Shown: positions 14,583 through 37,107 of the stretch, one piece after another | How positions within the stretch are numbered: position 1 is the first letter of the stretch | Layout of the letters: the number at the start of each line of letters is the position of its first letter | Assembly: GCA_023818655.1 (NCBI GenBank) | Contig: JAMWCI010000001.1 | Span: 1-45,677 of the forward strand | Direction: 5' to 3' | Source: Candidatus Omnitrophota bacterium | GTDB taxonomy: Bacteria; Omnitrophota; Gorgyraeia; Gygaellales; Profunditerraquicolaceae | DNA: 45,677 nucleotides | Translations under genes and position numbers: made by a program | Notes under the pieces: model-generated | Told to the model about the DNA's origin: nothing | The model's input: only the letters and a program-made list of their open reading frames with translations | Databases searched by the model: none

Positions 14583-14585
14583 ATC

Positions 14586-15914: not shown

Positions 15915-15917
15915 TCT

Positions 15918-16436: not shown

Positions 16437-16449
16437 ATCTGCCCTTTCT

Positions 16450-21726: not shown

Positions 21727-22733
21727 TTGAATTTCACCTGCCTAAATATGGAAAAAAGCCGAGTAAAAGGCACATACCACTTGGAAAGCTGGCCCAGCTG
21801 GCCTGATAATTTCATCTTCCCTTGGGTAACCGCCACAAAAGAATCCAGTTTACCTAAAAAGACCTGCTCCCAGATATCTCTCGGTGCGGAAATTACAAAA
21901 GGGGCATTGGCATCAAAATCTAAGCACACAATCTTTCCTTTTTCAAAATTGAATTTATAAGCAGAATCAGAGCCGTCCATCTTTATGGCCAGTTGCACGG
22001 TCAAATCCAGCTCTTTTCCTTTTTGGGCGATAAACTCATCCTTGTTGACCAAATCCACAATTGCCTGGATATGCTCCCGGGAAAACATCGGATATGCTGC
22101 TTCTTGTCTGGTGAGTTCTTCTTTCAGGCCGTTATCTAAATCGTCAAAGGCCTCTTTATTAAAGAGTCTGGCAATAGCAGCGCTTTTGACTGCCTCCTCC
22201 AACGCCTCAATCAACGTCAGGGCATCTTTAAAATTCTGTCCTATAACTACTACACCATGGTTTTTCAGCACTACCAGATTATTTGACTTTAAGGCATTAA
22301 TAACCGGCTGGGGCTGTGTGACAGTAGGAGTTTCCTGTTTTACAGACGGAACTTCGCCTAAATAAAGTTTAGTTTCAAAGGTCAACGCCTTTAACGAATC
22401 GTAAACGCTAAAATACCCGTTTATCAAAGGAGGATGACAATGCACTACTACCTGAACAGGAAAATTTTTGTAAACTAAGCTATGCAGCGGAAGTTCTGAA
22501 CTGGGATTTTTAGAATCGAGGGACTCTCCGCTGGCTAAACTAACTCTGACAATATCTTCGGGCGTCAAATCGCCCAGAGAGGTTCCGGTAGCGGTAATAA
22601 GGATATTGTATTCGTCAATTCTGCAGCTGAGATTGCCTGAATTAGCTACTGCCAGGCCTGCTTCATACAGCCGCCTGCCTACTCTAATAATCTCTTCCTT
22701 CAATCTTCCTCCGGATTCCGGGATACGATACAA
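21723..22733 (-). CDS. Class II aldolase/adducin-fold enzyme fused to a C-terminal SCP2 (sterol-carrier-like) domain
   Basis: N-terminal residues 1 to about 200 show the aldolase-II pattern (NSGNLSCRIDE..ILITATGTSLGDLTPEDIV .. SSELPLHSLVY .. VVVHCHPP .. VLKNHGVVVIG). C-terminal residues about 235-336 show an SCP2 pattern (..FVISAPRDIWEQVFLGKLDSFVAVTQGKMKLSGQLGQLSKW). The start is uncertain: the longest ORF begins at a TTG and there is no nearby ATG. Confidence 0.7.
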   Translation of the reverse strand: MYRIPESGGRLKEEIIRVGRRLYEAGLAVANSGNLSCRIDEYNILITATGTSLGDLTPEDIVRVSLASGESLDSKNPSSELPLHSLVYKNFPVQVVVHCHPPLINGYFSVYDSLKALTFETKLYLGEVPSVKQETPTVTQPQPVINALKSNNLVVLKNHGVVVIGQNFKDALTLIEALEEAVKSAAIARLFNKEAFDDLDNGLKEELTRQEAAYPMFSREHIQAIVDLVNKDEFIAQKGKELDLTVQLAIKMDGSDSAYKFNFEKGKIVCLDFDANAPFVISAPRDIWEQVFLGKLDSFVAVTQGKMKLSGQLGQLSKWYVPFTRLFSIFRQVKFK

Positions 22734-22736
22734 TTT

Positions 22737-23708
22737 TCAATTTTTGCTTTGGTTTAAAAGGTGAACAACATCCCCGATATTCAAATAAATATGCTTGGTG
22801 ATTAAATTGCTGGGTGTTATGTCAAACGCCGGATAATATCCCTTGACTCCCTTTGGCGCAATAGAGATGCCGCAAAATTCCAATAATTCCCCCTCTGGAC
22901 GGATTTCAAGTTGAATATCCTCTCCTGTTTTAGCAAGAGAGACTGGAGAACAAAGCACATAAAAAGGAATCTTAAAATAATCTGCCATAATGGCAATCTG
23001 GTATGTTCCTATCTTATTGGCGATATCGCCGTTTTGGGCTAAGTTATCCGCGCCAACTATGACTTTGGAAATTTTTCCTTCCTTCATCACCTCTGCTACC
23101 ATATTATCGGCGATAACAGTGACATTACACCCTGCCTTTTTTAGTTCCCATGCAGTAAGACGGCTGCCCTGCAAATAAGGACGGGTCTCCGTAACAAAAA
23201 AACTTACGGATTTATTTTGCTGGCGGCATAATCTGGCAATTAAAGGCATAAGCCCGCTGACATTGCAATGGGTAAGAATTGTATCCTTATCGTCTATTAA
23301 TCCACTACATTCCTTTGCCTGCTCTATGCGTTTTGCCTTTAATCCTTCCAAAAAATTCAAGATGCCATTATCCAGCCGGACACCTTGCTTATGTAAACCA
23401 ATGGCAAGGTCAGTTAAAAACTTAAAAGATAGCGTTGGCCGAACGCTATTGAAGGCATCGGCAACATTAGACAGAATCTGAGCAATATTTTTTTTGTTCT
23501 GGTTTCGCCTGTATTCCAATAAAAAGGAATACATCACCAGCAATACCTGACCTATAGCGCGGGTCTTCATCTGTTTAATTGCCGATACCGCCTGTTTGTA
23601 ATTTCCTACTTTGATATATTTTAATTTATGCGGCAGCAATGTCTCATCTAAGATATAAATAAATTTACCTTTCAATTTCACCGGCCAAAACAAAGGAGAA
23701 TATTTCAT
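22737..23708 (-). CDS. eIF-2B alpha/beta/delta-family sugar-phosphate isomerase (MtnA-like; methylthioribose-1-P / 5-deoxyribose-1-P isomerase candidate)
   Basis: It has ILDETLLP near the N-terminus, ILTHCNVSGL (the catalytic Cys context of MtnA), and VIVGADNLAQNGDIANKIGTYQIA (the catalytic Asp context). Confidence 0.7.
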   Translation of the reverse strand: MKYSPLFWPVKLKGKFIYILDETLLPHKLKYIKVGNYKQAVSAIKQMKTRAIGQVLLVMYSFLLEYRRNQNKKNIAQILSNVADAFNSVRPTLSFKFLTDLAIGLHKQGVRLDNGILNFLEGLKAKRIEQAKECSGLIDDKDTILTHCNVSGLMPLIARLCRQQNKSVSFFVTETRPYLQGSRLTAWELKKAGCNVTVIADNMVAEVMKEGKISKVIVGADNLAQNGDIANKIGTYQIAIMADYFKIPFYVLCSPVSLAKTGEDIQLEIRPEGELLEFCGISIAPKGVKGYYPAFDITPSNLITKHIYLNIGDVVHLLNQSKN

Positions 23709-24457
23709 ATCCTTCCTTCTAACTTCTTTACCGTTGCCAGTCCGATATTAATCAGATTTGTCTCTGCCATATAATAAAGCGGATTCATAAAACCCATCTC
23801 TCCGGTTACGACATTGTCGCTGACTGCAAGGATTGAACCTGCTTTTACCTTATGCAGCTGCGCAATAGTCAGGAGCGCTGAAGAAACCATATCCACGGCA
23901 ATTGCGCCTTCTCTACGCCTGGCCTCCACAATCTGACGCGTCTCCCGCAATAACGCATCCGTAGTCCAGACAATCCCTCGATGGATATTTACGCCTAAGT
24001 CTTTGGCAACTTCATACAAGGTGTCGGAGATTGTTTTGTCAGCCACAGTTTGAAAATTCTCATCTACATAGTAAGGCGTTACCCCATCTCCTCGGATAAC
24101 CTTATCCACAATCACCAGATCGCCTATCTTGATATTATCATCCAAAGCCCCGCAGGTTCCGATGCGGATAATATTTTGTATGCCGGCATTGCACATCACC
24201 TCGGTGGTAATAGAGGTATCTGTGGAGAATCTACCGCCATTAATGGCGGTAATTCTTATCCCCTCATAGACGCCGGTATACATAGTGTATTCCATAAAAG
24301 AAAAATTGCGCACTGGATTCTCTATTTTTTTTACCAAGACTTCCAAACGGTCCTTTGGTCCGGGCACTATGGCATATTTGCCCACATCCTGAGGCCTCAA
24401 CTGCACCATATTGGTTAAATCTTTTCCGGTTAAATGAACATCCTTCTGCATCTGCAT
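23705..24457 (-). CDS. Nucleoside phosphorylase, NP-I (DeoD/Udp-like) family
   Basis: 250 aa with the pattern AIVPGPKDR .. YTGVYEGIRITAINGGRFSTDTSITTEVMCNAGIQNIIRIGTCGAL .. GDLVIVDK, typical of hexameric purine/uridine phosphorylases. Substrate cannot be read from the sequence. Confidence 0.7.
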   Translation of the reverse strand: MQMQKDVHLTGKDLTNMVQLRPQDVGKYAIVPGPKDRLEVLVKKIENPVRNFSFMEYTMYTGVYEGIRITAINGGRFSTDTSITTEVMCNAGIQNIIRIGTCGALDDNIKIGDLVIVDKVIRGDGVTPYYVDENFQTVADKTISDTLYEVAKDLGVNIHRGIVWTTDALLRETRQIVEARRREGAIAVDMVSSALLTIAQLHKVKAGSILAVSDNVVTGEMGFMNPLYYMAETNLINIGLATVKKLEGRI

Positions 24458-25175: not shown

Positions 25176-26105
25176 TTATGGCGACGATGACAAAGAAAAG
25201 GCTAACAGGCTTTCTAAATTCCTGCCTAAAATATTATTTTTATCTTCCTCTGAAATCGCTAATTCTCTGACTGCTCCGATGGAGTTGCTAATATCTTTTT
25301 TAGCTGGCCAGTCGCTACCCCAGAGTATATGCCTTGGCCCAAATAATTCAAGCGCCAAAAGAAAATTTGCCTTTGTCTTATCTCCGCCGGTATCCACATA
25401 GATATTCTTTAAATAATCCGAGGGGTTACCTTTTAAATCCTTTACGAAATTAATGCTGCGCAGCATAGAATAGGTGGCGTCAAATCTGTGCTGCAAAAAA
25501 GGTATTACCCCGGCAAAATGGGCAAAGATGAATTTAAGGTCATAATAATCGCGCAGGATATCGCTCATCAGGAGCTTGCCCGCGCTTAAGGTGATATCAA
25601 AAACATACCCAATCACCGGGGTTAAAAGCGGATCCTGCAACCGCTCTGCTCCTATAGGGTTTACAATCTGGGCATGTACAAAGATGGGAATCTTCTTCTG
25701 ACGGGCAATATTGTATACAGGAAGAAAACGCTGGTCATCCAGATATATTCCGTTGTAACTTGAGGCTAGGGAAATCGCCTTAAATCCCAACTCTTCAGTC
25801 GCTCTCTTTAACTCCTCGCACATATCTTTCGGATTATCTATAGGCAGCATTGCCGCACCGATGAATCGGTGAGGATAGCGCTTAATGATTTTGGCGACAT
25901 TATCGTTGTAGATACAAGCTGTCCGGGAAACGCTACCTATTTTCAGGTGCGCATCTGAAGTAGGATAGGAAAGCACAGCCTTGCTGATGCCTGCCTCATC
26001 CATAGCCTTAAGCTGGGCTTCGATATCGCCCCAGCCCTTGTGAAAGAAATGGGCGTTGGTTATAATCTCTTCGGGTAACCAGTGGGCATGGCTATCTATT
26101 ATCAT
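25176..26105 (-). CDS. Amidohydrolase-2 family metal-dependent hydrolase/decarboxylase (ACMSD-like)
   Basis: It begins MIIDSHAHWLPEE, the metal-binding HxH at the start. The C-terminal LWGSDWP is typical of the amidohydrolase-2 fold. Confidence 0.8.
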   Translation of the reverse strand: MIIDSHAHWLPEEIITNAHFFHKGWGDIEAQLKAMDEAGISKAVLSYPTSDAHLKIGSVSRTACIYNDNVAKIIKRYPHRFIGAAMLPIDNPKDMCEELKRATEELGFKAISLASSYNGIYLDDQRFLPVYNIARQKKIPIFVHAQIVNPIGAERLQDPLLTPVIGYVFDITLSAGKLLMSDILRDYYDLKFIFAHFAGVIPFLQHRFDATYSMLRSINFVKDLKGNPSDYLKNIYVDTGGDKTKANFLLALELFGPRHILWGSDWPAKKDISNSIGAVRELAISEEDKNNILGRNLESLLAFSLSSSP

Positions 26106-26500
26106 CTGCGCTCCGTACTCTTTAGAATGCGTTCAATCATCTCCATCTCATAGAGAAGTTTTATCTCCTTGAGGGCATCTTTGCCCAGCTCCTTGAGGAT
26201 GGCCTTTTCCACCGCCTTAAGTTTCAAATGAAGAAAATTATACTCTGGATTAATTTCATTATTATTCAAAAACTTCTGCTCCTTTGCCTCCTTTTCCTTG
26301 TTGCATATATAATTATGGAAATCACTAATAAACTTAACCAGTTTCCTGGAGCTATCCATACGGATAATCTCCCTAAGCAAGAATCTGTCGATTTCTAACT
26401 GGGTAAATTTGCGCTCAATTTTATCCAGCTCTTCTTTTGTGGTTTTGTAAAGCCAAACCAGATACCGCTTTTTCAGGTTCTTCAGGTCAAGTTTCTCCAT
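26102..26500 (-). CDS. Hypothetical helical/coiled-coil protein
   Basis: 132-aa K/E-rich ORF with no recognisable motif. It is ATGA-coupled to the amidohydrolase gene, which supports real coding. Confidence 0.45.
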   Translation of the reverse strand: MEKLDLKNLKKRYLVWLYKTTKEELDKIERKFTQLEIDRFLLREIIRMDSSRKLVKFISDFHNYICNKEKEAKEQKFLNNNEINPEYNFLHLKLKAVEKAILKELGKDALKEIKLLYEMEMIERILKSTERR

Positions 26501-26510
26501 TTTATCTCTG

Positions 26511-27119
26511 CTATTTCTTTATCAACTCCACATCGTCAAAATATAAGGTGCCTTTTGCCACAGGCAGCGGTTCGAACTGGTAGCTTTTAATGGGGAAATC
26601 CAGAATCCCGTTTTTGTCTGCTGATTCCGGCTGCCAGTCAGTGCGGGCAAAGAAATGGTCAAAAATACAGATAACCTGCTTCCACCCCTTAACGTCATCG
26701 CTGGTGATAAAACGCCACATCTCTCCGCCATTATCTTTCACGTCAAAAGCTATATCTTCCTTTGAGCCTGCGCCGTACATCCAGAATGAAATCCCCTTAA
26801 AATCGCTCCACTTGATATCATTAGCTTTAACTAACCAAGCGGCATTTTTTGCATCTAGTTCCTCTCCTCTTGCTATATACATATACCCTCCGGAAACAGC
26901 GTCAAAGGCCGCCCGCAAAGACTGCTTTCCTGAATGCACTTGTTCTGTTGCGGCGCTTACTTGCAAGGATGAACCATTACCAGCGCCAAAGTCTACTGTG
27001 CCGTCTGGCCCGCCGGAGATTATCCCCTCAAAGTTATCAATCACTAACCCAGCCTCTTCAGAAAACGCTACCCCTGCCACAAATAAAACCGCTATCACCA
27101 TAAAAACTATCCTTTTCAT
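26511..27119 (-). CDS. Exported beta-sandwich protein (CBM/CIA30-like carbohydrate-binding-type domain)
   Basis: It has a signal peptide (VFMVIAVLFVAGVAFS). The pattern VIDNFEG ... GTLYFDDVELIKK resembles CBM11/CIA30-type modules. This assignment is tentative. Confidence 0.45.
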   Translation of the reverse strand: MKRIVFMVIAVLFVAGVAFSEEAGLVIDNFEGIISGGPDGTVDFGAGNGSSLQVSAATEQVHSGKQSLRAAFDAVSGGYMYIARGEELDAKNAAWLVKANDIKWSDFKGISFWMYGAGSKEDIAFDVKDNGGEMWRFITSDDVKGWKQVICIFDHFFARTDWQPESADKNGILDFPIKSYQFEPLPVAKGTLYFDDVELIKK

Positions 27120-27143
27120 TTTCTCCTCCTCCTTGACTAATGA

Positions 27144-27920
27144 CTATTTATCAGGGTGCTGTTGTTGAAATGGTATAACCGGCTTTGTCCAAGGCGTCTG
27201 CTGGTTTATAATGGAAATCTCCAAGGGGCAAACATTTGCCGGCACAGTCAGGGCAAATTTTACCGCATTCTCTATCGCCTCGGTAGTCATTAAGCGCGAT
27301 GTATCTGTGGTAACTTCTTTGAGCTTGCCGGTCAGGTCCGTATCCGTAACCCCGGGAAGAAGCGAGGTAATCTTAATCCCGTAGTCGCGAATCTCCCAAA
27401 AAAGCCCTTTTAAAAATGCGCGCAAGCCTACCTTTAAAGAGCTATACACCAGAAAATTTCTGGGCAAGGGGTCGCAAAGGGTTGAGCCGGAAACAATACT
27501 GATAATCGCCCCGGATTTATTTTTTATCATATCGTTAATCACCAGCCGGATGAGCCGGACATAGCCCATATAGTTAGTATGCGCCAGTTTCTCAATATCA
27601 TCAATGGGTTGCTCTGGAAAAGGATATTGACTGGAGACCCCGGCGTTGTTAATCAGAATATCTATCCTGCCAAACCGCTCCTTGGTTTTATTAACCAGGT
27701 TTTGCAGGTCTTCAAGTTTTGCCACATCGCAAACCACTGGCAAGACTTCTACCTTATATTTTTTAGCTATCTCTTCAGCTGCTTCTTTAAGCGGGCCTTC
27801 AGCCCTGGCTGCAATAACCACATTTATCCCAAGGCTGGCCACAGTAGAAGCCAAGGCCTTGCCTATGCCCCGGCTTGCTCCGGTAACAATGGCGGTTTTT
27901 CCTTTAAGTTCGCTAATCAT
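27144..27920 (-). CDS. Short-chain dehydrogenase/reductase (candidate polyketide ketoreductase)
   Basis: It has TGASRGIGKA for cofactor binding, NNAG, and the catalytic YSSLK (Y-x-x-x-K). There is a strong SD (GAGGAGG). Confidence 0.85.
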   Translation of the reverse strand: MISELKGKTAIVTGASRGIGKALASTVASLGINVVIAARAEGPLKEAAEEIAKKYKVEVLPVVCDVAKLEDLQNLVNKTKERFGRIDILINNAGVSSQYPFPEQPIDDIEKLAHTNYMGYVRLIRLVINDMIKNKSGAIISIVSGSTLCDPLPRNFLVYSSLKVGLRAFLKGLFWEIRDYGIKITSLLPGVTDTDLTGKLKEVTTDTSRLMTTEAIENAVKFALTVPANVCPLEISIINQQTPWTKPVIPFQQQHPDK

Positions 27921-27942
27921 CTCTTCCTCCTCTATTCTCTCG

Positions 27943-29070
27943 CTACGTCCGATTAACCAACAGCAATCTCTTCTCCAATAACAATAAAATGGTCAGACAC
28001 CCTCCGCAAAAGACAAAATTACTAACCGGGCTTTTCTGCAAAAGCATCCCTCCTAAACCGGCTCCTATGCCTCCGGAGATAAAACGGATGCTGCTGTTTA
28101 AGCTGGCGGCTTCGTAAAGAAAATTTTTCGGCAGATCAGTAAGAATGGTAGAAAGCCCAACGTGATTCATTGTCCAGCCCCAGCCCCAGATAATCATCAG
28201 TAGCGCCAATAAAAAAATCGGCATCTTAATCACCAGAGAAAACGCGCTTAAAATCATCAGGATAATCCCCAGTTTGATTGTTTTAAGCCTGCCCAATGAA
28301 TCTGCCAGCCTCCCTCCTAGCACTTCTCCAAAAATTCCGCTTACGCTGGTTAAGGTAATCAACATACTGATTAAGAATTGCCCCAGCCCCAACTGAAAAG
28401 AAAAATATACCGCCAACCACTGCTGCAGGCCATGATAGATTAGACTGATAAAAAATATATAGGTAAATACAGACAAAAATCTCCTGTCTTGAAAAGCATT
28501 AAGGTAATTCGTCCTAAAAATTCCTTCCTCACTAGTAAGACAGGGAAGATAAAAATACATCGCCAAACATAGACAAATACCTGCTACTGCCGGAATAATA
28601 AAAATCACCCGCCAGGGCAATACCCCGCTTAAGAAAAGCCCGCAAAGGGAGGCGATAAAAGTAGCGCCAAAGAAGAGCCCTATGTGTTTGCCTCTTTTAT
28701 CAGCCTCTATCTGCTGACCAATAAGGATAATCCCCACGGGAATAACCGATGCGCCGAATATCCCCGTCAAAAACCTTGCCCAGAATAGCTGATAGATATT
28801 TGCGGATAATCCCGCTAAAAGATTAGCAAGAGAAAATAAACCCAGACAGGTCATTTCTATCTTCTTGGCGTCAAAGAGCCGGACCAGCGGTCCATAGATA
28901 AGCGCGGCAAGACCGTAAGGAATCATATACAGCCAGATAATTCTTCCGGCAAAAAATTGAGAAACGAGAAAATCCTTGGCAATAGAAGGCACCAACGCGG
29001 CAGAAGCTGCCACATTAAAAGAAAGAATCGCTGCCTCTAAACACAGGATAAGAAAAACGTTTTTTTTCAT
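27943..29070 (-). CDS. Major facilitator superfamily transporter
   Basis: About 12 predicted TM helices with typical MFS loop composition. I call the ATG at 29070 (MKKNVFLILCLE...). The track start at 29112 is a TTG lying inside the upstream gene. Confidence 0.75.
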   Translation of the reverse strand: MKKNVFLILCLEAAILSFNVAASAALVPSIAKDFLVSQFFAGRIIWLYMIPYGLAALIYGPLVRLFDAKKIEMTCLGLFSLANLLAGLSANIYQLFWARFLTGIFGASVIPVGIILIGQQIEADKRGKHIGLFFGATFIASLCGLFLSGVLPWRVIFIIPAVAGICLCLAMYFYLPCLTSEEGIFRTNYLNAFQDRRFLSVFTYIFFISLIYHGLQQWLAVYFSFQLGLGQFLISMLITLTSVSGIFGEVLGGRLADSLGRLKTIKLGIILMILSAFSLVIKMPIFLLALLMIIWGWGWTMNHVGLSTILTDLPKNFLYEAASLNSSIRFISGGIGAGLGGMLLQKSPVSNFVFCGGCLTILLLLEKRLLLVNRT

Positions 29071-29086
29071 AGTAAGGACTGTTTGC

Positions 29087-29530
29087 CTATTGCCTGGCGG
29101 CTTCCCTTTCAATAATCTGCTTAAAAATCTTCAGATTTGTCTGAGAACCTTCGTTAATGAAGCCCTCCACCTGCTGGTCATTGAATTTTGCTTTCTCATC
29201 CATCTCAAAATGCTGAATCCAGCTCATCTCTATGCCTTCTGGTTTGGGAGTATAAAGCCAGATGATCTTCATATACTTAAAAGGAAATTTTGGCTCTTGC
29301 CTTTCGGCATAAGCAAAGTATTTGTCTTTAAACAAAAGTCGCCAGGATACCCAGGATTTACCTTCTTCATCAGTCAGGCGGAAGGTGAGCTTATTGTCTT
29401 TTCTCTCCAAGACCTCCGCCTTTTGGTATTCCCCGCCAAAAAGTTCTGTCCAGCGAGAGATATCGTTTGAGATATCAAAAACCAAATCGTATGGTGCGTT
29501 GATGATAATGGAATTGCAGGTATGCCCCAT
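29087..29530 (-). CDS. SRPBCC/START-fold polyketide aromatase-cyclase, mono-domain TcmN-like
   Basis: 147 aa. The pattern HTCNSIIINAPYDLVFDISNDISRWTELF..EYQKAEVLER....LTFRLT .. PFKYMKIIWLY .. GIEMSWIQHFEMD matches, as I remember it, the TcmN/WhiE-type ARO/CYC pattern. There is a strong SD (AAGGAGGGAG). Confidence 0.7.
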   Translation of the reverse strand: MGHTCNSIIINAPYDLVFDISNDISRWTELFGGEYQKAEVLERKDNKLTFRLTDEEGKSWVSWRLLFKDKYFAYAERQEPKFPFKYMKIIWLYTPKPEGIEMSWIQHFEMDEKAKFNDQQVEGFINEGSQTNLKIFKQIIEREAARQ

Positions 29531-29567
29531 TAATCTCTCCCTCCTTAAAAGGAAATGCCTTCTTGTT

Positions 29568-30359
29568 TTAAATTACCGCTACAACCCTTGCCCAGGCAGC
29601 GCCGGTACATTTAATCCTTATCGGAAAACAGATTACCTTAAAGCCAAAATCCGGCAGTTTCTCCAGATTAGCTAAACGCTCAATGTGGATAAACTCCCTT
29701 TTTCTGCCGTAAAAATGCGCCGGATACAATGGTTTTCTCTGTTCTAAAAACTCTCTGAGCATAAATTTATATGGCCGGTCAATCCCCATAGTATCCACGC
29801 CAAAGATTTTTACCCCCCTATCCAGAAGATAATCTATCGCTGAAATATCTACTCCTGGATAATCGGAAAAATATCTTGGAGTGCCATAAAATTTATCCGC
29901 GCCGGTCTGTAAGAGAACTACGTCTTTTTCTTTAATGGTGTAATTTATCTTTTTAAGCCCGCTTTCAATATCCGCCGCGCTAATTACCTCTGCCGGCCTC
30001 TTATGCCTGAAATCCAACCTGACCCCGTCAGAGTAACACCACTCCAAAGGAATCTCATCAGCGCTCTTAGAGGGTCGGCCCTCAGACTTTGAACCGTAGT
30101 GGAAAGAGTAATCCAGGTGCGTGCCGATATGCACCGGAGAATGCACTACTTCCAGAGAGAGAAATTCTCCTTCCGGCAGGTCCTCTTTTTTTAAGATGCG
30201 CAAACCCAGCAGATACTTTATCCTGCCAAGGAGGGTCTTAACCATAATAACGCGGTTGAATTTCTCTACGCCTGCCTTATGCGAAATCCGCTCAATATCC
30301 ACCTTATGTATCTCAAAGGCACTCTCGTCAATGGGCAGGCTTAAATCAATTATCTTCAT
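29568..30359 (-). CDS. Cyclase-family protein (kynurenine-formamidase-like Zn hydrolase/cyclase fold)
   Basis: It has the H-x-G-T-H-x-D-x-x-x-H motif (HSPVHIGTHLDYSFHYG). The size is right at 263 aa. It is ATGA-coupled to the ACP gene. Confidence 0.7.
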   Translation of the reverse strand: MKIIDLSLPIDESAFEIHKVDIERISHKAGVEKFNRVIMVKTLLGRIKYLLGLRILKKEDLPEGEFLSLEVVHSPVHIGTHLDYSFHYGSKSEGRPSKSADEIPLEWCYSDGVRLDFRHKRPAEVISAADIESGLKKINYTIKEKDVVLLQTGADKFYGTPRYFSDYPGVDISAIDYLLDRGVKIFGVDTMGIDRPYKFMLREFLEQRKPLYPAHFYGRKREFIHIERLANLEKLPDFGFKVICFPIRIKCTGAAWARVVAVI

Positions 30360-30592
30360 TTTGCAATCTTAGACTGAATTACCTTATCAATATCATTAAT
30401 GGTAGAAAACTTGGTAACCTCCTTTGCGCCCAAGGATATGCCGAAGACCTTTCCCAAAGCAATCACTGCCTCTACCATCTCAGTAGAATCCACACCTATT
30501 GAATCCTGCAAGGAGACATCATCCTTCAACTCTTCCGGCTTGACCTTAAGCAGATTAATCAATATTTCTTTTATCTTCGCTTTCGTATCCAT
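30356..30592 (-). CDS. Acyl carrier protein
   Basis: 78-aa acidic protein with the phosphopantetheine attachment motif GVDSTEMVE (Ser36). It has an SD (AGGAGAGGG). Confidence 0.85.
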   Translation of the reverse strand: MDTKAKIKEILINLLKVKPEELKDDVSLQDSIGVDSTEMVEAVIALGKVFGISLGAKEVTKFSTINDIDKVIQSKIAK

Positions 30593-30607
30593 ATCCCTCT
30601 CCTGTTG

Positions 30608-32068
30608 TTAAATCTGAATCTCACCTTTGGTTGCTGCGGCTTCCCATTTTCCAATGCCTGACATAACATCCTGAAAACAAAGTTTTGCCAAAGGGTCAAA
30701 GTTGCTCTCCATAATCCTGTTTATGCGTCCGGGCTTGGAATAAAATTCGCGCATACACCAAGCGCCCAAACGGCCTAACTCTTCAATCGTTAAATGGTCT
30801 GTGGGTATGACTGGATGCAAAAAATCCCAGGTGCTAAAATCTACTTTCTTGGGGTCAATCCAGTTTTTCTTCAGGGCTATCCTCCACATGGGGGAATTCG
30901 GGGCAGGGGTTACATAACCAATCCATAACACATCCGGGTCAACCTCATCGGCAAACTCAAACCTCTGCTTGATAATTGCCTCGGTATCGTAATCAAACCC
31001 AATCATAATATCCGCCACAATCGCAATATCATTCCTGCGCAAAATCTCAATGGTTTTTTTAATCTGTTCGATGGTGGTGCCTTTGGCAATCCGTTTCAGC
31101 TCCTCCGGAGTTGTAACCTCAATACCAAACACGCCCATAAATAAACCCGTTTCTTTCATTAGCGGCAGGATATGTTCACAATTTACCCAGTCCACTGCCC
31201 GACCCAAAGAAACCCACTTAATGGGGATATTCTTTTCTTTCTTTAATTCGCAAAATCTTTTTACCCGCTGCGGGTCAACATTAAAATTGTCGTCTTGAAT
31301 AACCACTACCTTTACGCCATACTTTTTATGAAGTAGTTCCATCTCTTCAATTACCCTCTCCGGAGACTTTGCTCGCCATTTCAAGAAGTCCGAAGGAGAA
31401 CGCGGGTCAAACTGGTCCCATTCATAGCAGAATGTGCAGGCAGATGGACAACCCCGGGAAGTAATCATATCCACGAAGGGCTTCCAGTGGGTATGCCCCA
31501 CGTATTTATCCATCGGGAACAGGTCATACGCCGGAAGGGGCAGCTTATCCAAATCACTCATCAACGGCTTATGCGGACCCATAACAATCTCTCCGTCAAT
31601 GCGCGAGGTGACTCCGCCGATATTTCTTAAGTCTTTCTTTTTATCAATCGCCTCAATTAAATCCGCAAAAGATTCTTCTTCTCCCATCACTACAAAATCT
31701 ACTGCCGGATTTTCCTCCAAGGTCTGTGTCGGCATAGCAGAGTACCATAAACCTCCCAGGATTATTTTTACCTTGGGAAGCGCCTGTTTAATCCTTACGC
31801 CTGCCTCCTTAAAATGGCGCAAGACGCCGTAGCCGGCATAACCGTGTATCTGTTCACCCATGACCACAATATCAGGGTTTTTGCTCTTGACCTGTTCGAT
31901 TAATTGCTCCATGGGAATCTCTAAGGCCCTTCCGTCAATAACCCCTACGTCAGCATATCCTCGCTGGCGTATATACGCTGCCCAATGGGCATAAAGCTGG
32001 TTCGGAGACTTATGGATTCCATGCGTTGCCCAGGCGCCGACTTTCGGCATAACAAATAAGATTTTCAT
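30608..32068 (-). CDS. B12-binding-domain radical SAM enzyme (class B)
   Basis: The N-terminal Rossmann-like B12-binding domain pattern runs MKILFVMP ... DIVVMGEQIH ... IILGG. It is followed by ITSRGCPSACTFCY (CxxxCxxC; Cys212/216/219 in ORF-track numbering). I call the ATG at 32068, which lies 8 nt after a GGAGG. The track start at 32083 is an alternative. Confidence 0.85.
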   Translation of the reverse strand: MKILFVMPKVGAWATHGIHKSPNQLYAHWAAYIRQRGYADVGVIDGRALEIPMEQLIEQVKSKNPDIVVMGEQIHGYAGYGVLRHFKEAGVRIKQALPKVKIILGGLWYSAMPTQTLEENPAVDFVVMGEEESFADLIEAIDKKKDLRNIGGVTSRIDGEIVMGPHKPLMSDLDKLPLPAYDLFPMDKYVGHTHWKPFVDMITSRGCPSACTFCYEWDQFDPRSPSDFLKWRAKSPERVIEEMELLHKKYGVKVVVIQDDNFNVDPQRVKRFCELKKEKNIPIKWVSLGRAVDWVNCEHILPLMKETGLFMGVFGIEVTTPEELKRIAKGTTIEQIKKTIEILRRNDIAIVADIMIGFDYDTEAIIKQRFEFADEVDPDVLWIGYVTPAPNSPMWRIALKKNWIDPKKVDFSTWDFLHPVIPTDHLTIEELGRLGAWCMREFYSKPGRINRIMESNFDPLAKLCFQDVMSGIGKWEAAATKGEIQI

Positions 32069-32088
32069 TCTCAAGCCCTCCATTTCTT

Positions 32089-32108
32089 TAGTTGATTATA
32101 GTTGATAT
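32089..32108. repeat. Tandem 10-bp direct repeat in the CLF/radical-SAM intergenic spacer
   Basis: TAGTTGATTA is followed by TAGTTGATAT, with the first 8 of 10 positions identical. The period is one helical turn. It overlaps a -10-like TATAAT on the minus strand. Confidence 0.6.
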
Positions 32109-32122
32109 TAAAAACCTTGCAA
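32095..32122 (-). promoter_or_regulatory. Candidate internal promoter ahead of the radical SAM-ACP-cyclase genes
   Basis: On the minus strand: TTGCAA (32122-32117), 16 nt, TATAAT (32100-32095). A GGAGG then precedes the ATG at 32068. Confidence 0.3.
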
Positions 32123-32133
32123 GAATAACGTCA

Positions 32134-33363
32134 TTATGGTTTTTCTACGACCAAGACCGCATTAATCCCTCCCCTGCCGCGGGAGATGGCCAAGGCTTTC
32201 TTAATCTTGTGCTCTTGCGCTTGTTTTCTGACGTAATTTAATGAATTCTGCGCAGGTTCATCAAGATTTATGGTAGGTGGAATTAAATTATGCTCCATAG
32301 CCAAAAGGGTAATTATCAAATCTATGGCCCCTGAAGCGCCTAAGAGATTTCCGAACATAGACTTTGGACAGCTGACAGGTATCTCTTTAAGCCTATCTCC
32401 AAAAACAATCCTTAAAGATTCTATCTCTGAGTTATCCCAGATATCCACAGCCAGACCATCAAGGCTGATAAAATCTATCTCCTCGGCTTCTGTCTTGGCA
32501 TCAGCAAGCGCCGTCTTAATTGCCCGGGCTAACTCTTGGCCGTCTGCGGCCGGATTAATCCTGTCTGCGCCGTCACAAGTTGTGCCGTAACCGGAAACTA
32601 AACCCAAGATATTTCCTCCCCGCGCAAAAGCGCGTTCAACACTCTCCATCACAACAATCCCTGCGCCTTCTGCGATAACAAAACCATTGCGTCTCTTATC
32701 AAATGGCCGGTAGGCCTCCTGCGGATGGGCGTTATCTGTGGAGAGCCCTCCGTAAGTGTTGCAGCATAACAGCGCATAGGGAGTAACCGGCGCCTCCATA
32801 CCGCCGGCTAAAATCAGATTTAATTTATCTTTGGCTAAAATCTTGCGCGCATAACCAATAGCCATTGTTGAACTTGCCCGGTCAGCGACTACGGTTTTGG
32901 AAAATCCCTTTATCCCGTAATAAATAGAAACCTGCCCTTGGGGGGCAGCAGGAAACCAGGCAGAAGCCATATAAGGAGAAACTCCTTCCCTGCCCTCAAT
33001 ATACATATCGCGCAATTCTGTCTCGGCATACAGCCAGCCGCCAATGGCATTGCCTAAAAATATCCCTACAAGATTAGGATTTTCTTTTTTAATATCTATG
33101 CCAGCATCCTGCAAGGCAAACTCTGAGGCAATCAAGGCCATATGCGAGAAGGCGTCAATCTTTTTTAAGAGCCGCGGCGAGATAGTGGAGTATTTTTCCA
33201 ACTCGTCAATCTGACCGGCAATATGCGAAGGGTATTTTGAGGCATCAAAACGGGTAATTTTCTTGACAAAGGAACGACCGCTTTTGATGTTTGCCCAGAA
33301 TTGACGTTTGCCAATCCCTGATGGACTAACTACGCCAATACCGCTAATGGCAATCTTATCCAT
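32134..33363 (-). CDS. Ketosynthase beta / chain-length-factor-like subunit, catalytically inactive
   Basis: It has the thiolase-fold KS pattern throughout. Column-by-column alignment to the adjacent KS-alpha puts Arg162 (codon CGG at 32880-32878) at the catalytic Cys position. Asp302 and Asn339 fall at the two catalytic His positions. Its start overlaps the KS-alpha stop by 8 nt. Confidence 0.8.
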   Translation of the reverse strand: MDKIAISGIGVVSPSGIGKRQFWANIKSGRSFVKKITRFDASKYPSHIAGQIDELEKYSTISPRLLKKIDAFSHMALIASEFALQDAGIDIKKENPNLVGIFLGNAIGGWLYAETELRDMYIEGREGVSPYMASAWFPAAPQGQVSIYYGIKGFSKTVVADRASSTMAIGYARKILAKDKLNLILAGGMEAPVTPYALLCCNTYGGLSTDNAHPQEAYRPFDKRRNGFVIAEGAGIVVMESVERAFARGGNILGLVSGYGTTCDGADRINPAADGQELARAIKTALADAKTEAEEIDFISLDGLAVDIWDNSEIESLRIVFGDRLKEIPVSCPKSMFGNLLGASGAIDLIITLLAMEHNLIPPTINLDEPAQNSLNYVRKQAQEHKIKKALAISRGRGGINAVLVVEKP

Positions 33364-34618
33364 TAAACCTCCGTAAAATTAAAGAAGAGTGAATCCCGGA
33401 GAAGCCGCTTGAAGTCTTCATCAGACAATTTATCCGCTTCTGGCGGGCTACATTAGGTATATAATCCAAATCGCACTGAGGGTCTTTCTCCTCCTGATTT
33501 ATTGTAGGAGGAAGAAAATTCTTTTCAAACATCATCGCATTGACGGTTAACTCCACGGCATTAGCTGCTGCCAGAGGATGACCAATCATAGATTTTAAGG
33601 AACTAATCGGCACCTTATAGGCATAATCGCCAAAAACTGTTTTGTAGGCAGCGGTCTCAAAGATATCGTTCATCCGGGTAGAAGAGCCATGCGCGCCGAT
33701 GTAATCAATCTCCTGTGGTTTAATCCCGGCGTCTTTTAAAGCCAAAACAATACAATTAGCCATAGCCGTGCCATCCGCCGGTAAATCCGTCATATGAAAT
33801 GCGTTGCAGCTCGTACCAAAACCGACCACCTCGCAATATATATGCGCATTTCTTTTTAAGGCGTGGTTTAATTCTTCTAAAATCAAAATTCCAGCCCCCT
33901 CCCCCAAGACAAAACCGTCGCGCCTATTATCAAATGGCCGCGAGGCTTTCTCAGGTGTATCATTGCGAGTAGATAAGACGCTGATCACGTCGAATGCGCC
34001 AAAGGTAATTGGCGTAATCGGAGCTTCTGCCGCCCCGCAAATCATAATCTCCTGTTCTCCGTCTTGAATGGTTTCTAAGGCAAAACCCACAGAGTCGGTT
34101 CCGGCGGTGCAACCGGTAGATAAAGTATTGCAGATTCCTTTTAGACCATATTTAGACGAGATTTCAATAGAGGGGGTATTAAACATCGCCGCATCATAAA
34201 GGTCAGGCCTGACCTTGGCAGGGTCAATAGGTTCTTTTCCGTCATTGGTCACTAAGGCAAACTCCTCTTCCATATATTTTGTGCCGCAGATGGCATTGGC
34301 TAAACAAACCCCTATCCGCCTAGGGTCTTCTTTGCTAAAATCCAAGCCGCTATCTTTAATCGCCATTTCTCCGGCAACTAATCCGAACTGCACATAGCGG
34401 TCCATCCGCATTACTTCCTGGTGAGTGAGACCCCATTGAAAAGGGTCAAAATCGCGCACCTCTGCGGCAATCTTGGTCTGAAAGATAGAGACATCAAATC
34501 CCTCTACTCGTTTTACTGCCGATACTCCGCCAACCATTGCCTTCCAGCAATTTTCTTTGCCAATACCATTAGGGGAAATCACCCCAATACCCGTAATCAC
34601 CACCCTGCGTTTATTCAT
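33356..34618 (-). CDS. Type II polyketide ketosynthase alpha subunit
   Basis: The catalytic triad is intact: Cys170 in LSTGCTAGTDSVG (codon TGC at 34111-34109), His310 in GAHGSSTRMND, and His347 in KSMIGHPLAA. The STGCT.G.D.VG and HGS.T..ND contexts are of the KS-alpha type rather than the FabF type. Confidence 0.85.
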   Translation of the reverse strand: MNKRRVVITGIGVISPNGIGKENCWKAMVGGVSAVKRVEGFDVSIFQTKIAAEVRDFDPFQWGLTHQEVMRMDRYVQFGLVAGEMAIKDSGLDFSKEDPRRIGVCLANAICGTKYMEEEFALVTNDGKEPIDPAKVRPDLYDAAMFNTPSIEISSKYGLKGICNTLSTGCTAGTDSVGFALETIQDGEQEIMICGAAEAPITPITFGAFDVISVLSTRNDTPEKASRPFDNRRDGFVLGEGAGILILEELNHALKRNAHIYCEVVGFGTSCNAFHMTDLPADGTAMANCIVLALKDAGIKPQEIDYIGAHGSSTRMNDIFETAAYKTVFGDYAYKVPISSLKSMIGHPLAAANAVELTVNAMMFEKNFLPPTINQEEKDPQCDLDYIPNVARQKRINCLMKTSSGFSGIHSSLILRRFNG

Positions 34619-36216
34619 TCTTCTATCCGCGTTAGTTTAAAGACTACCTTTCCGCCATCTGGACACGTTACTGTATCAATAGAATTTTGATTAGGCATAA
34701 AGAAAAATTTTGCGCCGAAATTCAAGGCAAAGAGAGCGGGAAAGGCGCAGTGGAAAGCTGCTCCGCAAAACCCCGGGATGCACTTTAAACCCTCGGTCCC
34801 CCATTTATCCCCGACTTTGTAGCCGAAGTGGCAAGTTCCGTCAGACCTCACTACCTCAATAAGCATTTTCTTCGGCTTAGGCCCTTTGTAATTTGGGTCT
34901 TTAGGGCTAAACTGCGCTTTGCCTTTATTGTCCAGAACCTCCACCTTAAACTCTAATTTTCCTCCGTCAGGACAGGTAACTTTTAAGGTCTGCTGGTTTT
35001 CCATAAAGGGAAACTTCGCCCCGAAACTTAAGGCGTAGGCTGCCGGAAACACTGCATGCGCAAGACCCAGACAGAAATATTTGGGCGGATGAGTAAAATC
35101 TTCTAAGATCAGCTCATCTCCGACTTTATATCCATGATAACAATGCCCTCCGACATTAACTACGCTGAGTTTAAGGCGCGGAAAAGGAGAATCAATCACC
35201 TTATTCTCAACAATCTCCGCCAGTCCATTAATTTCCCGAAAAAACTCTTCCCTGCTGAAAAACTTCCTATTCTTTTCAACCTCATGCACCATCTCCACCA
35301 TTTTTTTATTGAGCGGCGCATCCAATCCGTATTTCTCAGCTAACCGCACAAACTCTCCGTTAAGATAATCTATCTCCGAAGGTCTGCCTCTTTTTATGCT
35401 TTGCAATACCGAACCGTAGAGCGGCTCTTTACTCAATGTAGTCATGATGCCGGAGTATATCCCTGCTGACTGCACAGCAGGCAAAGAAACCAGTTTAGTC
35501 AGACGCTCAAGGGGAAAATCCGGCAAAGAAACCAGTTTAATTCCTCCTTTGTTAACAATCTCCCAACCCTCTTTCCATATCTGCATAGCCACGCAGGATA
35601 CATTAATATCGCTAAAGGCCTTCTGGATGCTAACACCTAAGATGGCAGGGATACAGTTATTGGCATTTATAAAGAGCTTAAGGTATTTCATCCCCTGGAT
35701 ATCGTCGGCAAGCCTAACATTAAAAGCCACGCTTAACGTTGCGAATAACTGCTTGAGCGTATCGTCGTTCTTCCCAAATGCGCTTCCGATAATCCACGGC
35801 CCTTCAAAGTTATGCGCAATCCTGCCTGGTTCAAGGCGGGTGGCGCCGAACATTACAATACTGGAGACGATATTTTCCTTTGGCGCATATTTAGCCACCA
35901 GTTCTTCGCTGGCTACACCGTTCTGGATAGTCAGGATTATCGCATCTTTAATATATGCCTGATTACTCTTTAACGCCTCTTCTATATCTTGGGTTTTGGT
36001 AGCTAGAATAATAAGGTCTGGTTTATAAGAGAGCTTTTCCGAGATGGGTATCTTTATATTATGCTGGCCCTTTGCTCCGGAAATATGCAGGCCGTTTTCT
36101 TCCACCGCCTTTACGCTGTCAGCATGAGCAACTAAAGATACATCTTGACCTTTTAGCTTTAAATAACCGGCTACCAAACCTCCGATTGCTCCTGCGCCAA
36201 TTACCGTAATCTTCAT
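34615..36216 (-). CDS. Ketopantoate-reductase (ApbA/PanE)-like NAD(P) oxidoreductase fused to two tandem small Cys/His-rich domains (TIGR04076-like)
   Basis: Residues 1 to about 310 begin MKITVIGAGAIGG (Rossmann) and show the KPR pattern (LATKTQD .. QNG .. EIDYLNGEFVRLAEKYGLDAP). Residues about 347-427 and 451-531 are two copies of one roughly 80-aa module (C.HGYKVGD ... FC..A.H..FPA..AL.FGAKF.FM.NQ....VTCPDGGK..FK). Confidence 0.75.
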   Translation of the reverse strand: MKITVIGAGAIGGLVAGYLKLKGQDVSLVAHADSVKAVEENGLHISGAKGQHNIKIPISEKLSYKPDLIILATKTQDIEEALKSNQAYIKDAIILTIQNGVASEELVAKYAPKENIVSSIVMFGATRLEPGRIAHNFEGPWIIGSAFGKNDDTLKQLFATLSVAFNVRLADDIQGMKYLKLFINANNCIPAILGVSIQKAFSDINVSCVAMQIWKEGWEIVNKGGIKLVSLPDFPLERLTKLVSLPAVQSAGIYSGIMTTLSKEPLYGSVLQSIKRGRPSEIDYLNGEFVRLAEKYGLDAPLNKKMVEMVHEVEKNRKFFSREEFFREINGLAEIVENKVIDSPFPRLKLSVVNVGGHCYHGYKVGDELILEDFTHPPKYFCLGLAHAVFPAAYALSFGAKFPFMENQQTLKVTCPDGGKLEFKVEVLDNKGKAQFSPKDPNYKGPKPKKMLIEVVRSDGTCHFGYKVGDKWGTEGLKCIPGFCGAAFHCAFPALFALNFGAKFFFMPNQNSIDTVTCPDGGKVVFKLTRIEE

Positions 36217-36491
36217 CTGTGTATTTCCTGTTTTGTCTTGGGAAAACCGTATTTTTTGTAGTCAAAGCCGGTCTGCTCCAATAGACGCACCATCATGCTG
36301 TAAAAAGGCGAAGGCACATCCGCAAAAAACGCGCCTATTACATCCTCCTCTTCAATTTTCGGCGAGCCCCTTTTTAAAGCCAGTTCTTCTGCCTTCTTAA
36401 TCACTATCTCCTCTGTTATGCGACGGTGAAAGAGGGGGATTTTGGAAATAAAGATTTTGAATTTATCCTGCACCGTTCTTTCCCATTCCAT
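36213..36491 (-). CDS. Small PCP-reductase-like (BchB/ChlB C-terminal-like) domain protein
   Basis: 92 aa. The pattern WERTVQDKFKIFISKIPLFHRRITEEIVIKKAEELALKRG resembles the W..eA...l.kiP.FvR......e..A...G pattern of that domain. It is the first gene after the promoter and is ATGA-coupled to the next gene. This assignment is tentative. Confidence 0.5.
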   Translation of the reverse strand: MEWERTVQDKFKIFISKIPLFHRRITEEIVIKKAEELALKRGSPKIEEEDVIGAFFADVPSPFYSMMVRLLEQTGFDYKKYGFPKTKQEIHR

Positions 36492-36537
36492 GCTATAATT
36501 TCCTAATATAATAAAATTTTACTATTAAAATTTTTAT

Positions 36538-36566
36538 ATCTTACATAAAAAATACGTTCCTGTCAA
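36538..36566 (-). promoter_or_regulatory. Strong sigma-70-type promoter of the PKS operon
   Basis: On the minus strand: TTGACA (36566-36561), an exact 17 nt, TAAGAT (36543-36538). It lies in a very AT-rich 97-bp gap immediately after the padR stop. The predicted TSS falls inside an AAAATTTTA-CTAT-TAAAATTTT inverted/direct repeat (36512-36534). Confidence 0.55.
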
Positions 36567-36588: not shown

Positions 36589-37107
36589 TTAGATTACGTT
36601 GATAAAGCGGGTTAAAAAATTAATCTCTGAATCAACCATCCGCAGGTTATGTTCTAGTATATAAATAAGACTCCTTGGGCTCTTGGTCTTTTTTAACTCT
36701 TCTATATTCTCTCTTAAATCCCGGGATAATTTTCTTAAAACCATAGTCCTTGCGCGTAACCTGCGTCTGGCTATCTGTGGCTTAATATAATTAAGAAAAT
36801 AGAGGCTTAAATCCAGGCTAAACTGCGGACGTTTAAAGTCCAGAAAACTTTTACTTAAAAGCTCCTCAAATCTCTCCTGCCCTCTCGCGGTCAGATAATA
36901 TACAAAACGCTCTGGCCGCTTCCCCTTTTTTCTGATTCGTTTGGCAATAAGACCCCTGCGTTCAAGAATCCTTAGGGGATAGTAAATGGATTTTAAATCC
37001 ACTCCCGCAAAGATAGAGAGTATCTCTTTTATCGTTTTCTTGATTTCATAGCCGTGCTTCTGGCTTTCCTTTAACAAACCCAAGAATAATAATTCGTATT
37101 CAATCAT
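36589..37107 (-). CDS. PadR-family transcriptional regulator
   Basis: It has a winged-helix pattern ([23 protein letters not shown] .. [14 protein letters not shown]) and a helical C-terminal extension. It is ATGA-coupled to accA. Confidence 0.8.

Follow-up and report, generated by a model that had tools for sequence, protein, structure and literature searches.

Most of the aromatic type II polyketides that are known are antibiotics and pigments which actinomycetes make with the help of oxygen. This raises the question of what is encoded by a compact block of minus-strand genes in Candidatus Omnitrophota (assembly GCA_023818655.1, contig JAMWCI010000001.1), which has the outward form of an aromatic type II polyketide synthase (PKS) cluster. 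The stretch of DNA that was analysed, here called the window, is 45,677 nucleotides long and is the entire contig of a Candidatus Omnitrophica metagenome-assembled genome (MAG). In a preliminary description, made from the letters of the window alone, ten genes were read as a single aromatic PKS operon, and all ten open reading frames (ORFs) were found in place on the minus strand. The analysis presented here indicates that the cluster is very probably a working, vertically inherited type II (aromatic) PKS pathway of the uncultured phylum Omnitrophota, and of the order Gygaellales wherever the lineage can be named. The reading is carried by the predicted properties of a ketosynthase pair and two cyclases, and by the conservation of the locus in related genomes.

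The ketosynthase pair and the cyclases

Profile searches of the ten proteins, as suggested in the preliminary description, returned the Pfam families ApbA and ApbA_C, the N- and C-terminal ketoacyl-synt domains (twice), B12-binding together with Radical_SAM, PP-binding, PF04199, Polyketide_cyc/cyc2, MFS_1 and adh_short, the last for the short-chain dehydrogenase/reductase (SDR) given as the final gene of the ten. The two ketoacyl-synt proteins had been described as an active ketosynthase (KS-alpha) and an inactive partner of the chain length factor (CLF) type (KS-beta), and both assignments were borne out by alignment. Residues Cys170, His310 and His347 of KS-alpha, together with Lys342, align with the catalytic residues of act KS, AntD and FabF, and in KS-beta the Cys, His and His are replaced by Arg, Asp and Asn. 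The Arg/Asp/Lys/Asn set of KS-beta is invariant in 77 Omnitrophota sequences, as are its gatekeeper residues, which are W/A/L at the positions of F109/T112/F116 in act CLF. A prediction of chain length from these gatekeepers was dropped, its basis being too weak.

The solved structures in the PDB that KS-alpha matches best are act KS (384 bits) and AntD (379 bits); FabF comes next (361 bits) and the ishigamide KS trails well behind (244 bits). The KS-alpha motifs STGC and SGFSGIHS are common to AntD but not to FabF. The PDB scores of KS-beta are ambiguous when taken alone (FabF 281 bits, act CLF 237 bits). Neither protein reaches the cut-off of 493.75 bits set for the fabF equivalog model TIGR03150, KS-alpha having 469 bits and KS-beta 375. 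In an exhaustive search of 1.8 billion representatives the closest neighbours of KS-alpha were only 45–56% identical, and some of these carry the name ‘minimal PKS ketosynthase (KS/KS alpha)’ or belong to Laceyella, Thermoactinomyces or Clostridium botulinum. Placement of the pair relative to FabF was examined in a neighbour-joining tree (500 bootstraps) of named references and a few selected representatives, with no aryl-polyene KS among the references. KS-alpha grouped with act KS, Streptomyces KS-alpha, AntD and the ketosynthases of Bacillus, Laceyella and C. botulinum at 99.8% bootstrap, and KS-beta grouped with the Streptomyces CLF and Bacillus KS2 at 100%, apart from FabF.

The proteins proposed to act after the ketosynthases also resemble those of aromatic pathways. 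The SRPBCC protein, which had been called a TcmN-like aromatase/cyclase, matches WhiE (E = 9e-26) and TcmN (E = 4e-25), and the alignments keep Y35, W65, S67, R69, M91, W95, W108, Q110 and N136, the residues that line the TcmN pocket; PF03364, a family that the protein matches, also takes in lipid-binding START-like proteins. The PF04199 protein is 46% identical to a ‘cyclase family protein’ of the Bacillus bombysepticus type II PKS cluster, and its solved relatives are hydrolases only. The acyl carrier protein (ACP) has the phosphopantetheine-attachment serine, Ser36, where the preliminary description had placed it. Malonyl-CoA:ACP transacylase (MCAT), phosphopantetheinyl transferase (PPTase), FabZ and enoyl reductase domains were found in none of the window ORFs of at least 110 aa, in agreement with the earlier inventory, and the picture of a diderm host is upheld by genes in the window for LptE, BamD/YfiO and MurJ. 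The aromatic type II PKS reading holds because, as tested here, the ketosynthases stand apart from FabF, both cyclase candidates resemble polyketide cyclases, and no characterised product of the operon was found in the searchable literature, where only catalogue-level mentions of an Omnitrophota polyketide turned up.

Conservation of the unit across Omnitrophota

KS-alpha relatives are encoded in at least 352 stretches of species-representative genomes; this number is a lower bound which depends on the exact peptide patterns used, one genome having been scanned per GTDB species. In the best 80 of the 352, KS-alpha is 78–84% identical to that of the window, nearly all of these genomes are labelled Omnitrophota or Omnitrophica, and their sources are groundwater, lakes, peat and marine sites. 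Loci were compared in a set of 83, made up of the 80 closest by KS-alpha and three metagenome contigs; presence is counted over the loci that cover the position concerned (eligible loci), and identities are medians to the window protein. A search for the same gene order, which the preliminary description had proposed, found the order kept in all 83 loci, with the core genes present in 92–100% of eligible loci (Table 1). The neighbouring gene accA serves as a fair comparator because AccA was taken from the same genomes as the cluster genes: it is present in 40 of 62 loci, and its median identity of 75% compares with 85% for the radical S-adenosylmethionine (rSAM) enzyme, 83% for the SDR, 81% for KS-alpha and 79% for KS-beta. 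This level of enzyme conservation, equal to that of AccA and found in very small genomes, suggests a constant physiological role and not that of an occasional antibiotic. The cluster-bearing MAGs UBA6233, UBA6249, UBA6253, UBA1562, AM-2014-D7_bin-608 and GWF2_43_52 have been assigned to Velamenicoccia, Gygaellales (GTDB GIF10), with estimated genome sizes of ∼1.6–2.5 Mb (PMC10066038 supplement).

The comparison also redefines the limits of the unit. The ten genes of the proposed operon stand, but its lower boundary at 27,144 does not: a 132-aa gene and an Amidohydro_2 gene are conserved with the cluster in relatives, and the unit therefore extends past this point. On these comparative grounds, the conserved unit is a compact set of 11–12 genes reaching from ∼25,176 to 36,566. 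On the contigs of four relatives the shared order runs DUF212, LysM/YkuD, AccA, PadR, a ∼90-aa protein, ApbA, double TIGR04076, KS-alpha, KS-beta, rSAM, ACP, cyclase, SRPBCC, SDR, a ∼130-aa protein and Amidohydro_2, with major facilitator superfamily (MFS), cupin and alpha/beta-hydrolase genes as optional members, and the genes that flank the cluster are the same in relatives. The tight packing that had been reported was confirmed by overlaps of 4 or 8 bp at four junctions (gene 1/gene 2, gene 2/KS-alpha, KS-alpha/KS-beta and ACP/cyclase), the KS-alpha/KS-beta overlap being 8 bp, and Shine–Dalgarno sequences of the GGAGG type were found before the KS-beta, ACP, SRPBCC and SDR genes. The GC content of the window is even (0.41–0.47), with no compositional island at the cluster.

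Two genes within the unit are less constant. The protein described as an MFS exporter does belong to the MFS_1 family, but it is not a fixed member of the operon: it is optional (68% of loci) and is replaced or absent in two of the compared loci, L001 and L006. Its start codon is uncertain, being either TTG at 29,112 or ATG at 29,070. The CBM_11-like protein is optional as well, and probably lies outside the pathway. In the MAG JAZDPH01 (isolate MEGAHIT-group-0.826), KS-alpha was found on two contigs (L030 and L086), each copy 81–82% identical to that of the window, and these are either two copies in one genome or the product of a mixed bin. A more distant cluster, L007, has a KS only 47% identical; counterparts of the Amidohydro_2 enzyme (37%) and of the SRPBCC protein (45%) lie beside its KS/CLF genes, and its rSAM enzyme is only 24% identical.

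Table 1. Positions of the features of the cluster and its upstream region in the window, with presence among eligible loci and median identity to the window protein.
Feature	Positions	Strand	Loci	Identity	Remarks
Gene 1, 92-aa protein	36,213–36,491	−	64/64	67%	weakly PCP_red/DUF2621-like
Gene 2, N-terminal part: ApbA/PanE NAD(P)H reductase	35,257–36,216	−	64/64	59%	ApbA 123, ApbA_C 68, TIGR00745 198 bits (above cut-off)
Gene 2, C-terminal part: two TIGR04076 repeats	34,615–35,217	−	78/78	74%	96 bits, cut-off 33 (NCBIfam)
KS-alpha, active ketosynthase	33,356–34,618	−		81%	ketoacyl-synt; Cys170/His310/Lys342/His347; anchor gene
KS-beta/CLF, catalytically dead	32,134–33,363	−	64/64	79%	Arg/Asp/Lys/Asn
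B12-binding rSAM	30,608–32,083	−	62/62	85%	CxxxCxxC; between KS-beta and ACP; most conserved gene
ACP	30,356–30,592	−	61/61	71%	PP-binding 35 bits; Ser36 in GVDS
PF04199 metal-dependent cyclase-family protein	29,568–30,359	−	59/59	77%	103 bits; HxGTHxDxxxH
TcmN/WhiE-type aromatase/cyclase (SRPBCC)	29,087–29,530	−	58/58	79%	monodomain; 147 aa
MFS transporter	27,943–29,112	−	36/53	62%	MFS_1 133 bits
Classical SDR, candidate ketoreductase	27,144–27,920	−	53/53	83%	adh_short 168 bits
CBM_11-like protein, 202 aa	26,511–27,119	−	32/52 (62%)	59%	insert between SDR and 132-aa genes
132-aa helical protein	26,102–26,500	−	47/51	54%	overlaps decarboxylase gene start by 4 bp
Amidohydro_2, non-oxidative decarboxylase branch	25,176–26,105	−	46/47	72%	Pfam 102 bits
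Sigma-70-type promoter	36,538–36,566	−			−35 TTGACA 36,566–36,561; 17-nt spacer; −10 TAAGAT 36,543–36,538
16-bp palindrome	36,509–36,524	.			consensus TAGTAAAATTTTACTA; between −10 and gene 1; one mismatch in window
PadR-family regulator	36,589–37,107	−			PadR 50 bits; directly upstream; overlaps accA by 4 bp

Proposed pathway and rival explanations

In the pathway that we propose, transcription would start at the conserved sigma-70-type promoter. The acetyl-CoA carboxylase whose accA gene adjoins the cluster would supply malonyl-CoA, and the transacylase of the fatty acid synthase (FAS) and a PPTase, both encoded elsewhere, would load the holo-ACP. The KS-alpha/KS-beta heterodimer would prime by decarboxylation and extend a poly-beta-keto chain, the length of which would be set by the KS-beta tunnel; the TcmN-like protein would fold this chain and aromatise the first ring, and the PF04199 metal-dependent cyclase would close a later ring. 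Family membership suggests that the SDR may reduce a carbonyl and that the Amidohydro_2 enzyme may strip a terminal carboxyl group, the best PDB matches of the latter being ACMSD, 5-carboxyvanillate decarboxylase (LigW) and gamma-resorcylate decarboxylase. For the rSAM enzyme, its family points either to C-methylation at an unactivated carbon or to an anaerobic oxidation or cyclisation of the kind that is performed by oxygenases in aerobes, and it would probably be partnered by the PCP_red-like protein, the ApbA reductase and the Cys-rich TIGR04076 pair. As judged from their families, all the tailoring genes of the cluster are compatible with life without oxygen.

The rSAM enzyme was described correctly as B12-binding, since domains of both families were matched. 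Its best-scoring family is BchE (TIGR02026; 218 bits against a cut-off of 481, residues 8–438), followed by HpnJ (157 bits, far under the cut-off); as the best family yet one whose equivalog cut-off is not reached, BchE makes the enzyme BchE-like and not BchE itself. The small protein encoded by gene 1 had been called PCP-reductase-like, and this survives as a match that recurs across its family but that stays below the Pfam cut-off: sub-threshold hits to DUF2621 were found in 13 of 14 members and to PCP_red in 8 of 14. A PCP_red protein is also present in the distant cluster L007, and homology of the 92-aa protein to it was not established (hhalign probability 18%). The reductase fused to two small Cys/His domains is real in the window, where gene 2 encodes 533 aa, but fusion is not a general feature, being seen in none of 65 relatives; in all 65, ApbA and the double TIGR04076 are separate ORFs lying 1–7 nt apart. 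Comparison with these relatives indicates that the ORF of the window has either lost a stop codon or been misassembled, and the metagenome protein P0310 may be a second ApbA–TIGR04076 fusion. Fused or not, the two genes are tightly coupled. Each TIGR04076 repeat carries an invariant Cys...Cys...His...Cys-Pro-Asp-Gly signature. An AlphaFold2 model built from 26 sequences reached a mean pLDDT of 66, and Foldseek against the PDB returned nothing with E < 0.1; no function can be inferred for TIGR04076 from a model of low confidence without a fold match. Of 12 members of the family of the 132-aa protein, none matched Pfam consistently.

The preliminary description had proposed that anaerobe-style partners take the place of the usual oxygenases. 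This fits with the neighbourhoods of the closest KS relatives outside Omnitrophota, which carry genes for a FAD monooxygenase, SnoaL, O-methyltransferases, a UbiA prenyltransferase or multicopper oxidases; these neighbours support a swap, in the Omnitrophota lineage, of oxygen-dependent tailoring for anaerobic chemistry.

The most serious rival to an aromatic PKS is the synthesis of ladderane-like or otherwise unusual lipids, whereby a KS/CLF-like heterodimer, an ACP, an SDR and a B12-dependent rSAM enzyme would build and rearrange a fatty-acyl chain, as has been proposed for anammox Planctomycetota, relatives within the Planctomycetota–Verrucomicrobiota–Chlamydiota (PVC) group. Omnitrophota MAGs are reported to have received ‘ladderane’ calls of the antiSMASH type (PMC9902471), and the anammox FabF2/FabFmut pair is a KS/CLF-like heterodimer encoded beside radical SAM genes (preprint 10.64898/2026.05.19.726425). 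The two systems have in common a ketosynthase pair with one active and one dead member, an ACP, a B12-type radical SAM enzyme and an anaerobic PVC host. The rSAM gene of the window likewise lies inside the KS–ACP block and matches TIGR04072 (rSAM_ladder_B12), but only weakly (76.7 bits, cut-off 360), and the anammox enzyme belongs to another rSAM family. The anammox cluster also has no aromatase or cyclases, whilst the Omnitrophota cluster encodes two enzymes that would be useless to a lipid pathway: a PKS-type cyclase and an aromatase/cyclase of the TcmN type whose pocket is intact. The replacements in the triad differ too, FabFmut having Val or Thr and not Arg at the position of the Cys; KS-alpha groups with the ketosynthases of aromatic PKSs; and neither a dehydratase nor an enoyl reductase was found in the cluster or the window. 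We regard lipid synthesis of this kind as very unlikely. We give a similarly slim chance to a highly reducing type II PKS of the aryl-polyene or ishigamide type, which would make a polyene or alkyl chain and in which the SRPBCC protein would be a lipid-binding START-like protein. Such KS/CLF pairs typically have a CLF without the Gln, an SDR is present, and PF03364 does include START-like proteins; set against this, no dehydratase (FabZ/hotdog) domain was found in the cluster or window, KS-alpha scores far lower with the ishigamide KS than with act KS (244 against 384 bits), and the SRPBCC protein matches TcmN and WhiE specifically and keeps the pocket residues. A housekeeping locus for FAS condensing enzymes, with FabF/FabB paralogues beside accA, would account for the adjoining accA gene, for conservation at a housekeeping level and for the fact that KS-alpha passes a FabF subfamily model. 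It is hardly credible, however, given that KS-alpha, at 469 bits, falls short of the 494 bits that the fabF equivalog model demands, that KS-beta is catalytically dead, that the pair is separated from FabF at 99.8% and 100% bootstrap, that FabH, FabD, FabZ and FabI are not in the locus and that two polyketide cyclases are.

Several observations weigh against the aromatic PKS pathway that we favour. The evidence presented here is that of sequence; neither a product nor a transcript or protein has yet been seen. The Gln regarded as a hallmark of actinomycete CLFs (Gln161 of act CLF) is replaced by Arg in KS-beta. At this Cys-equivalent position Bacillus KS2 also has Arg, the L007 protein has Ser, and Gln is found in the act and Streptomyces CLFs; the Gln defines this actinomycete group and not the CLF family as a whole. 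KS-alpha does pass the looser FabF subfamily model PRK07314 (460 against 387 bits). In a 90-sequence tree that included all the unnamed representatives the topology agreed, with backbone support of ∼30% or less, and the CLF grouping in the neighbour-joining tree could be inflated by long-branch attraction. The 80 loci were picked by their similarity in KS-alpha, which biases the KS-alpha identity upwards. The SDR is generic, with unspecific PDB matches. The minimal PKS and aromatase/cyclase steps rest on sequence tests. What the rSAM enzyme, the ApbA reductase, the TIGR04076 pair and the two small proteins of 92 and 132 aa do in the pathway is guesswork.

Regulatory region, surroundings and known systems

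The preliminary description had placed a single promoter upstream of gene 1 as the driver of all ten genes. The site is present and its −35 element is conserved, and its control of the ten genes is plausible and unproven. A consensus scan gave 16 promoter-like sites where 21.9 were expected, such that a single site is not above chance, and a terminator scan was likewise not above chance in this AT-rich region; for this reason only comparative conservation is informative. In an alignment of 69 related loci with the window, the −35 CTTGACA is 80–99% conserved and the −10 is TAnAAT-like, and just downstream of the −10 lies a 25-nt block, 90–99% conserved, in which the palindrome sits. The window has one good copy of the palindrome; of the 68 related loci with a palindrome, 67 have just one, mostly ∼1.9–2.2 kb upstream of KS-alpha. 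A PadR gene is found upstream of the cluster in the same orientation in 44 of 63 loci, and regulators of the PadR family commonly respond to phenolic or aromatic ligands. From its position and conservation, the palindrome is probably an operator for this adjacent PadR-type regulator. An Rfam search of the window found two tRNAs only and no riboswitch at the cluster; the tRNA genes are divergent (13,645–13,717, minus strand; 13,799–13,881, plus strand).

Directly downstream of the cluster, at 20,278–24,457 on the minus strand, are genes for a PNP_UDP_1 phosphorylase, an IF-2B/MtnA-type isomerase and a class II aldolase, and then an aldehyde dehydrogenase. Together these genes look like a ‘DHAP shunt’ for the salvage of 5'-deoxyadenosine and methylthioadenosine (MTA), by-products of radical SAM enzymes; the first three also follow the cluster in the relative L006. 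Some 5 kb beyond the cluster on the downstream side is a gene for an AMP-binding enzyme of the acyl-CoA ligase type (18,758–20,272), which, by analogy with AntG of the Photorhabdus ant cluster, could activate the ACP or a starter. Further away, no Pfam match was found for four consecutive minus-strand ORFs at 14,148–16,956 (144, 442, 181 and 168 aa) or for a 642-aa ORF at 43,100–45,028.

For type II PKSs outside the actinomycetes an ‘ancestral’ core of KS-CLF-ACP-TcmN-OxyN has been described (PMC7693217). The clusters for clostrubin (Clostridium), dendrubin (Dendrosporobacter), AQ-256 (ant; Photorhabdus) and pyxidicycline, the hosts of which include anaerobes, share the KS-CLF-ACP and TcmN-type core with that of Omnitrophota; to judge by its family, the PF04199 protein may correspond to the OxyN/PF04199-type cyclase of the ancestral clusters. 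The Omnitrophota TcmN is a monodomain protein, unlike the duplicated TcmN-TcmN of den and of Gram-negative clusters (PMC7693217). Omnitrophota further differ from the ancestral clusters in having a B12-rSAM gene between CLF and ACP and additional ApbA, double TIGR04076, PCP_red-like, Amidohydro_2 and 132-aa genes. Their KS-alpha is only ∼46% identical to Photorhabdus AntD, and the cluster is widespread (at least 352 species with a KS-alpha relative) where the ancestral clusters are sporadic. The closest named ketosynthase pair is that of the B. bombysepticus plasmid NZ_CP085408 (KS1 49–50%, KS2 44%), whose KS2 shares with KS-beta both the Arg in place of the Cys and the W/A/L gatekeepers, which suggests that the Bacillus cluster may make a chain of the same length. 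Its tailoring is in an aerobic style (a FAD oxidoreductase, a cupin and two SAM methyltransferases), it has an AcpS of its own, and its annotated genes include no SRPBCC, rSAM, ApbA, TIGR04076 or decarboxylase.

In Streptomyces, the whiE pathway is conserved vertically and makes a cell-associated pigment, not a strain-specific antibiotic, and the WhiE and TcmN aromatase/cyclases are the best solved relatives of the Omnitrophota SRPBCC protein. KS-alpha is ∼44–45% identical to act KS and to a Streptomyces plasmid KS, the actinomycete references used in place of the whiE and tcm ketosynthases themselves. Compared with whiE and tcm, the Omnitrophota cluster has a CLF with Arg instead of Gln, lacks TcmI/TcmJ-type proteins in most loci examined, is without oxygenases and resides in an anaerobic diderm. 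The closest representative to the Omnitrophota ketosynthases, L088 (DAOTTL010000293.1), encodes a fused KS-CLF of 869 aa beside a UbiA prenyltransferase, UbiE-like and O-methyltransferases, SnoaL and a FAD monooxygenase, a set of neighbours that suggests a prenylated, quinone-like aromatic polyketide. Radical SAM chemistry in a type II PKS has a precedent in CoeI, which C-methylates an anthraquinone in the coelulatin pathway, the cluster of which is a soil-metagenome clone expressed in Streptomyces coelicolor (PMC9714029); CoeI is HemN-like and not B12-dependent, unlike the Omnitrophota enzyme.

Candidatus Omnitrophica was listed in 2023 among 14 phyla with KS-CLF pairs, with no further analysis (PMC10132072), and the main genomics paper on Omnitrophota mentions neither ketosynthases nor secondary metabolism. 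The literature searched gave no account of the 11–12 gene architecture, of its set of rSAM, ApbA, TIGR04076, PCP_red-like and decarboxylase genes, of its conservation or of its promoter and operator. Thus type II PKSs outside the actinomycetes and the KS-CLF pairs of Omnitrophica were already known, and it is this architecture that was not found described.

We put forward tentatively, as a possibility that is itself rather doubtful, that a whole order of ultra-small, streamlined anaerobes makes an aromatic polyketide as a core physiological molecule, without oxygen, by means of a BchE-like B12-rSAM enzyme which, together with a PCP_red-like protein and an ApbA/TIGR04076 redox module, would carry out the oxidative or C–C chemistry for which aerobes use oxygenases; as part of the same tentative proposal, the molecule might be a cell-associated pigment, for instance, or a redox carrier resembling a quinone. 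The compact unit, with its conserved promoter and candidate operator, offers a practical target for synthesis and for heterologous expression under anoxic conditions. If the pathway is active, it would show how aromatic polyketides can be finished without oxygenases, and it would give a function to the orphan TIGR04076 family, to the small PCP_red/DUF2621-like proteins and to a BchE/HpnJ-like subfamily of rSAM enzymes. It would also mean that these bacteria have a conserved small molecule, which may matter for the host-dependent or syntrophic lifestyle that has been proposed for Omnitrophota.

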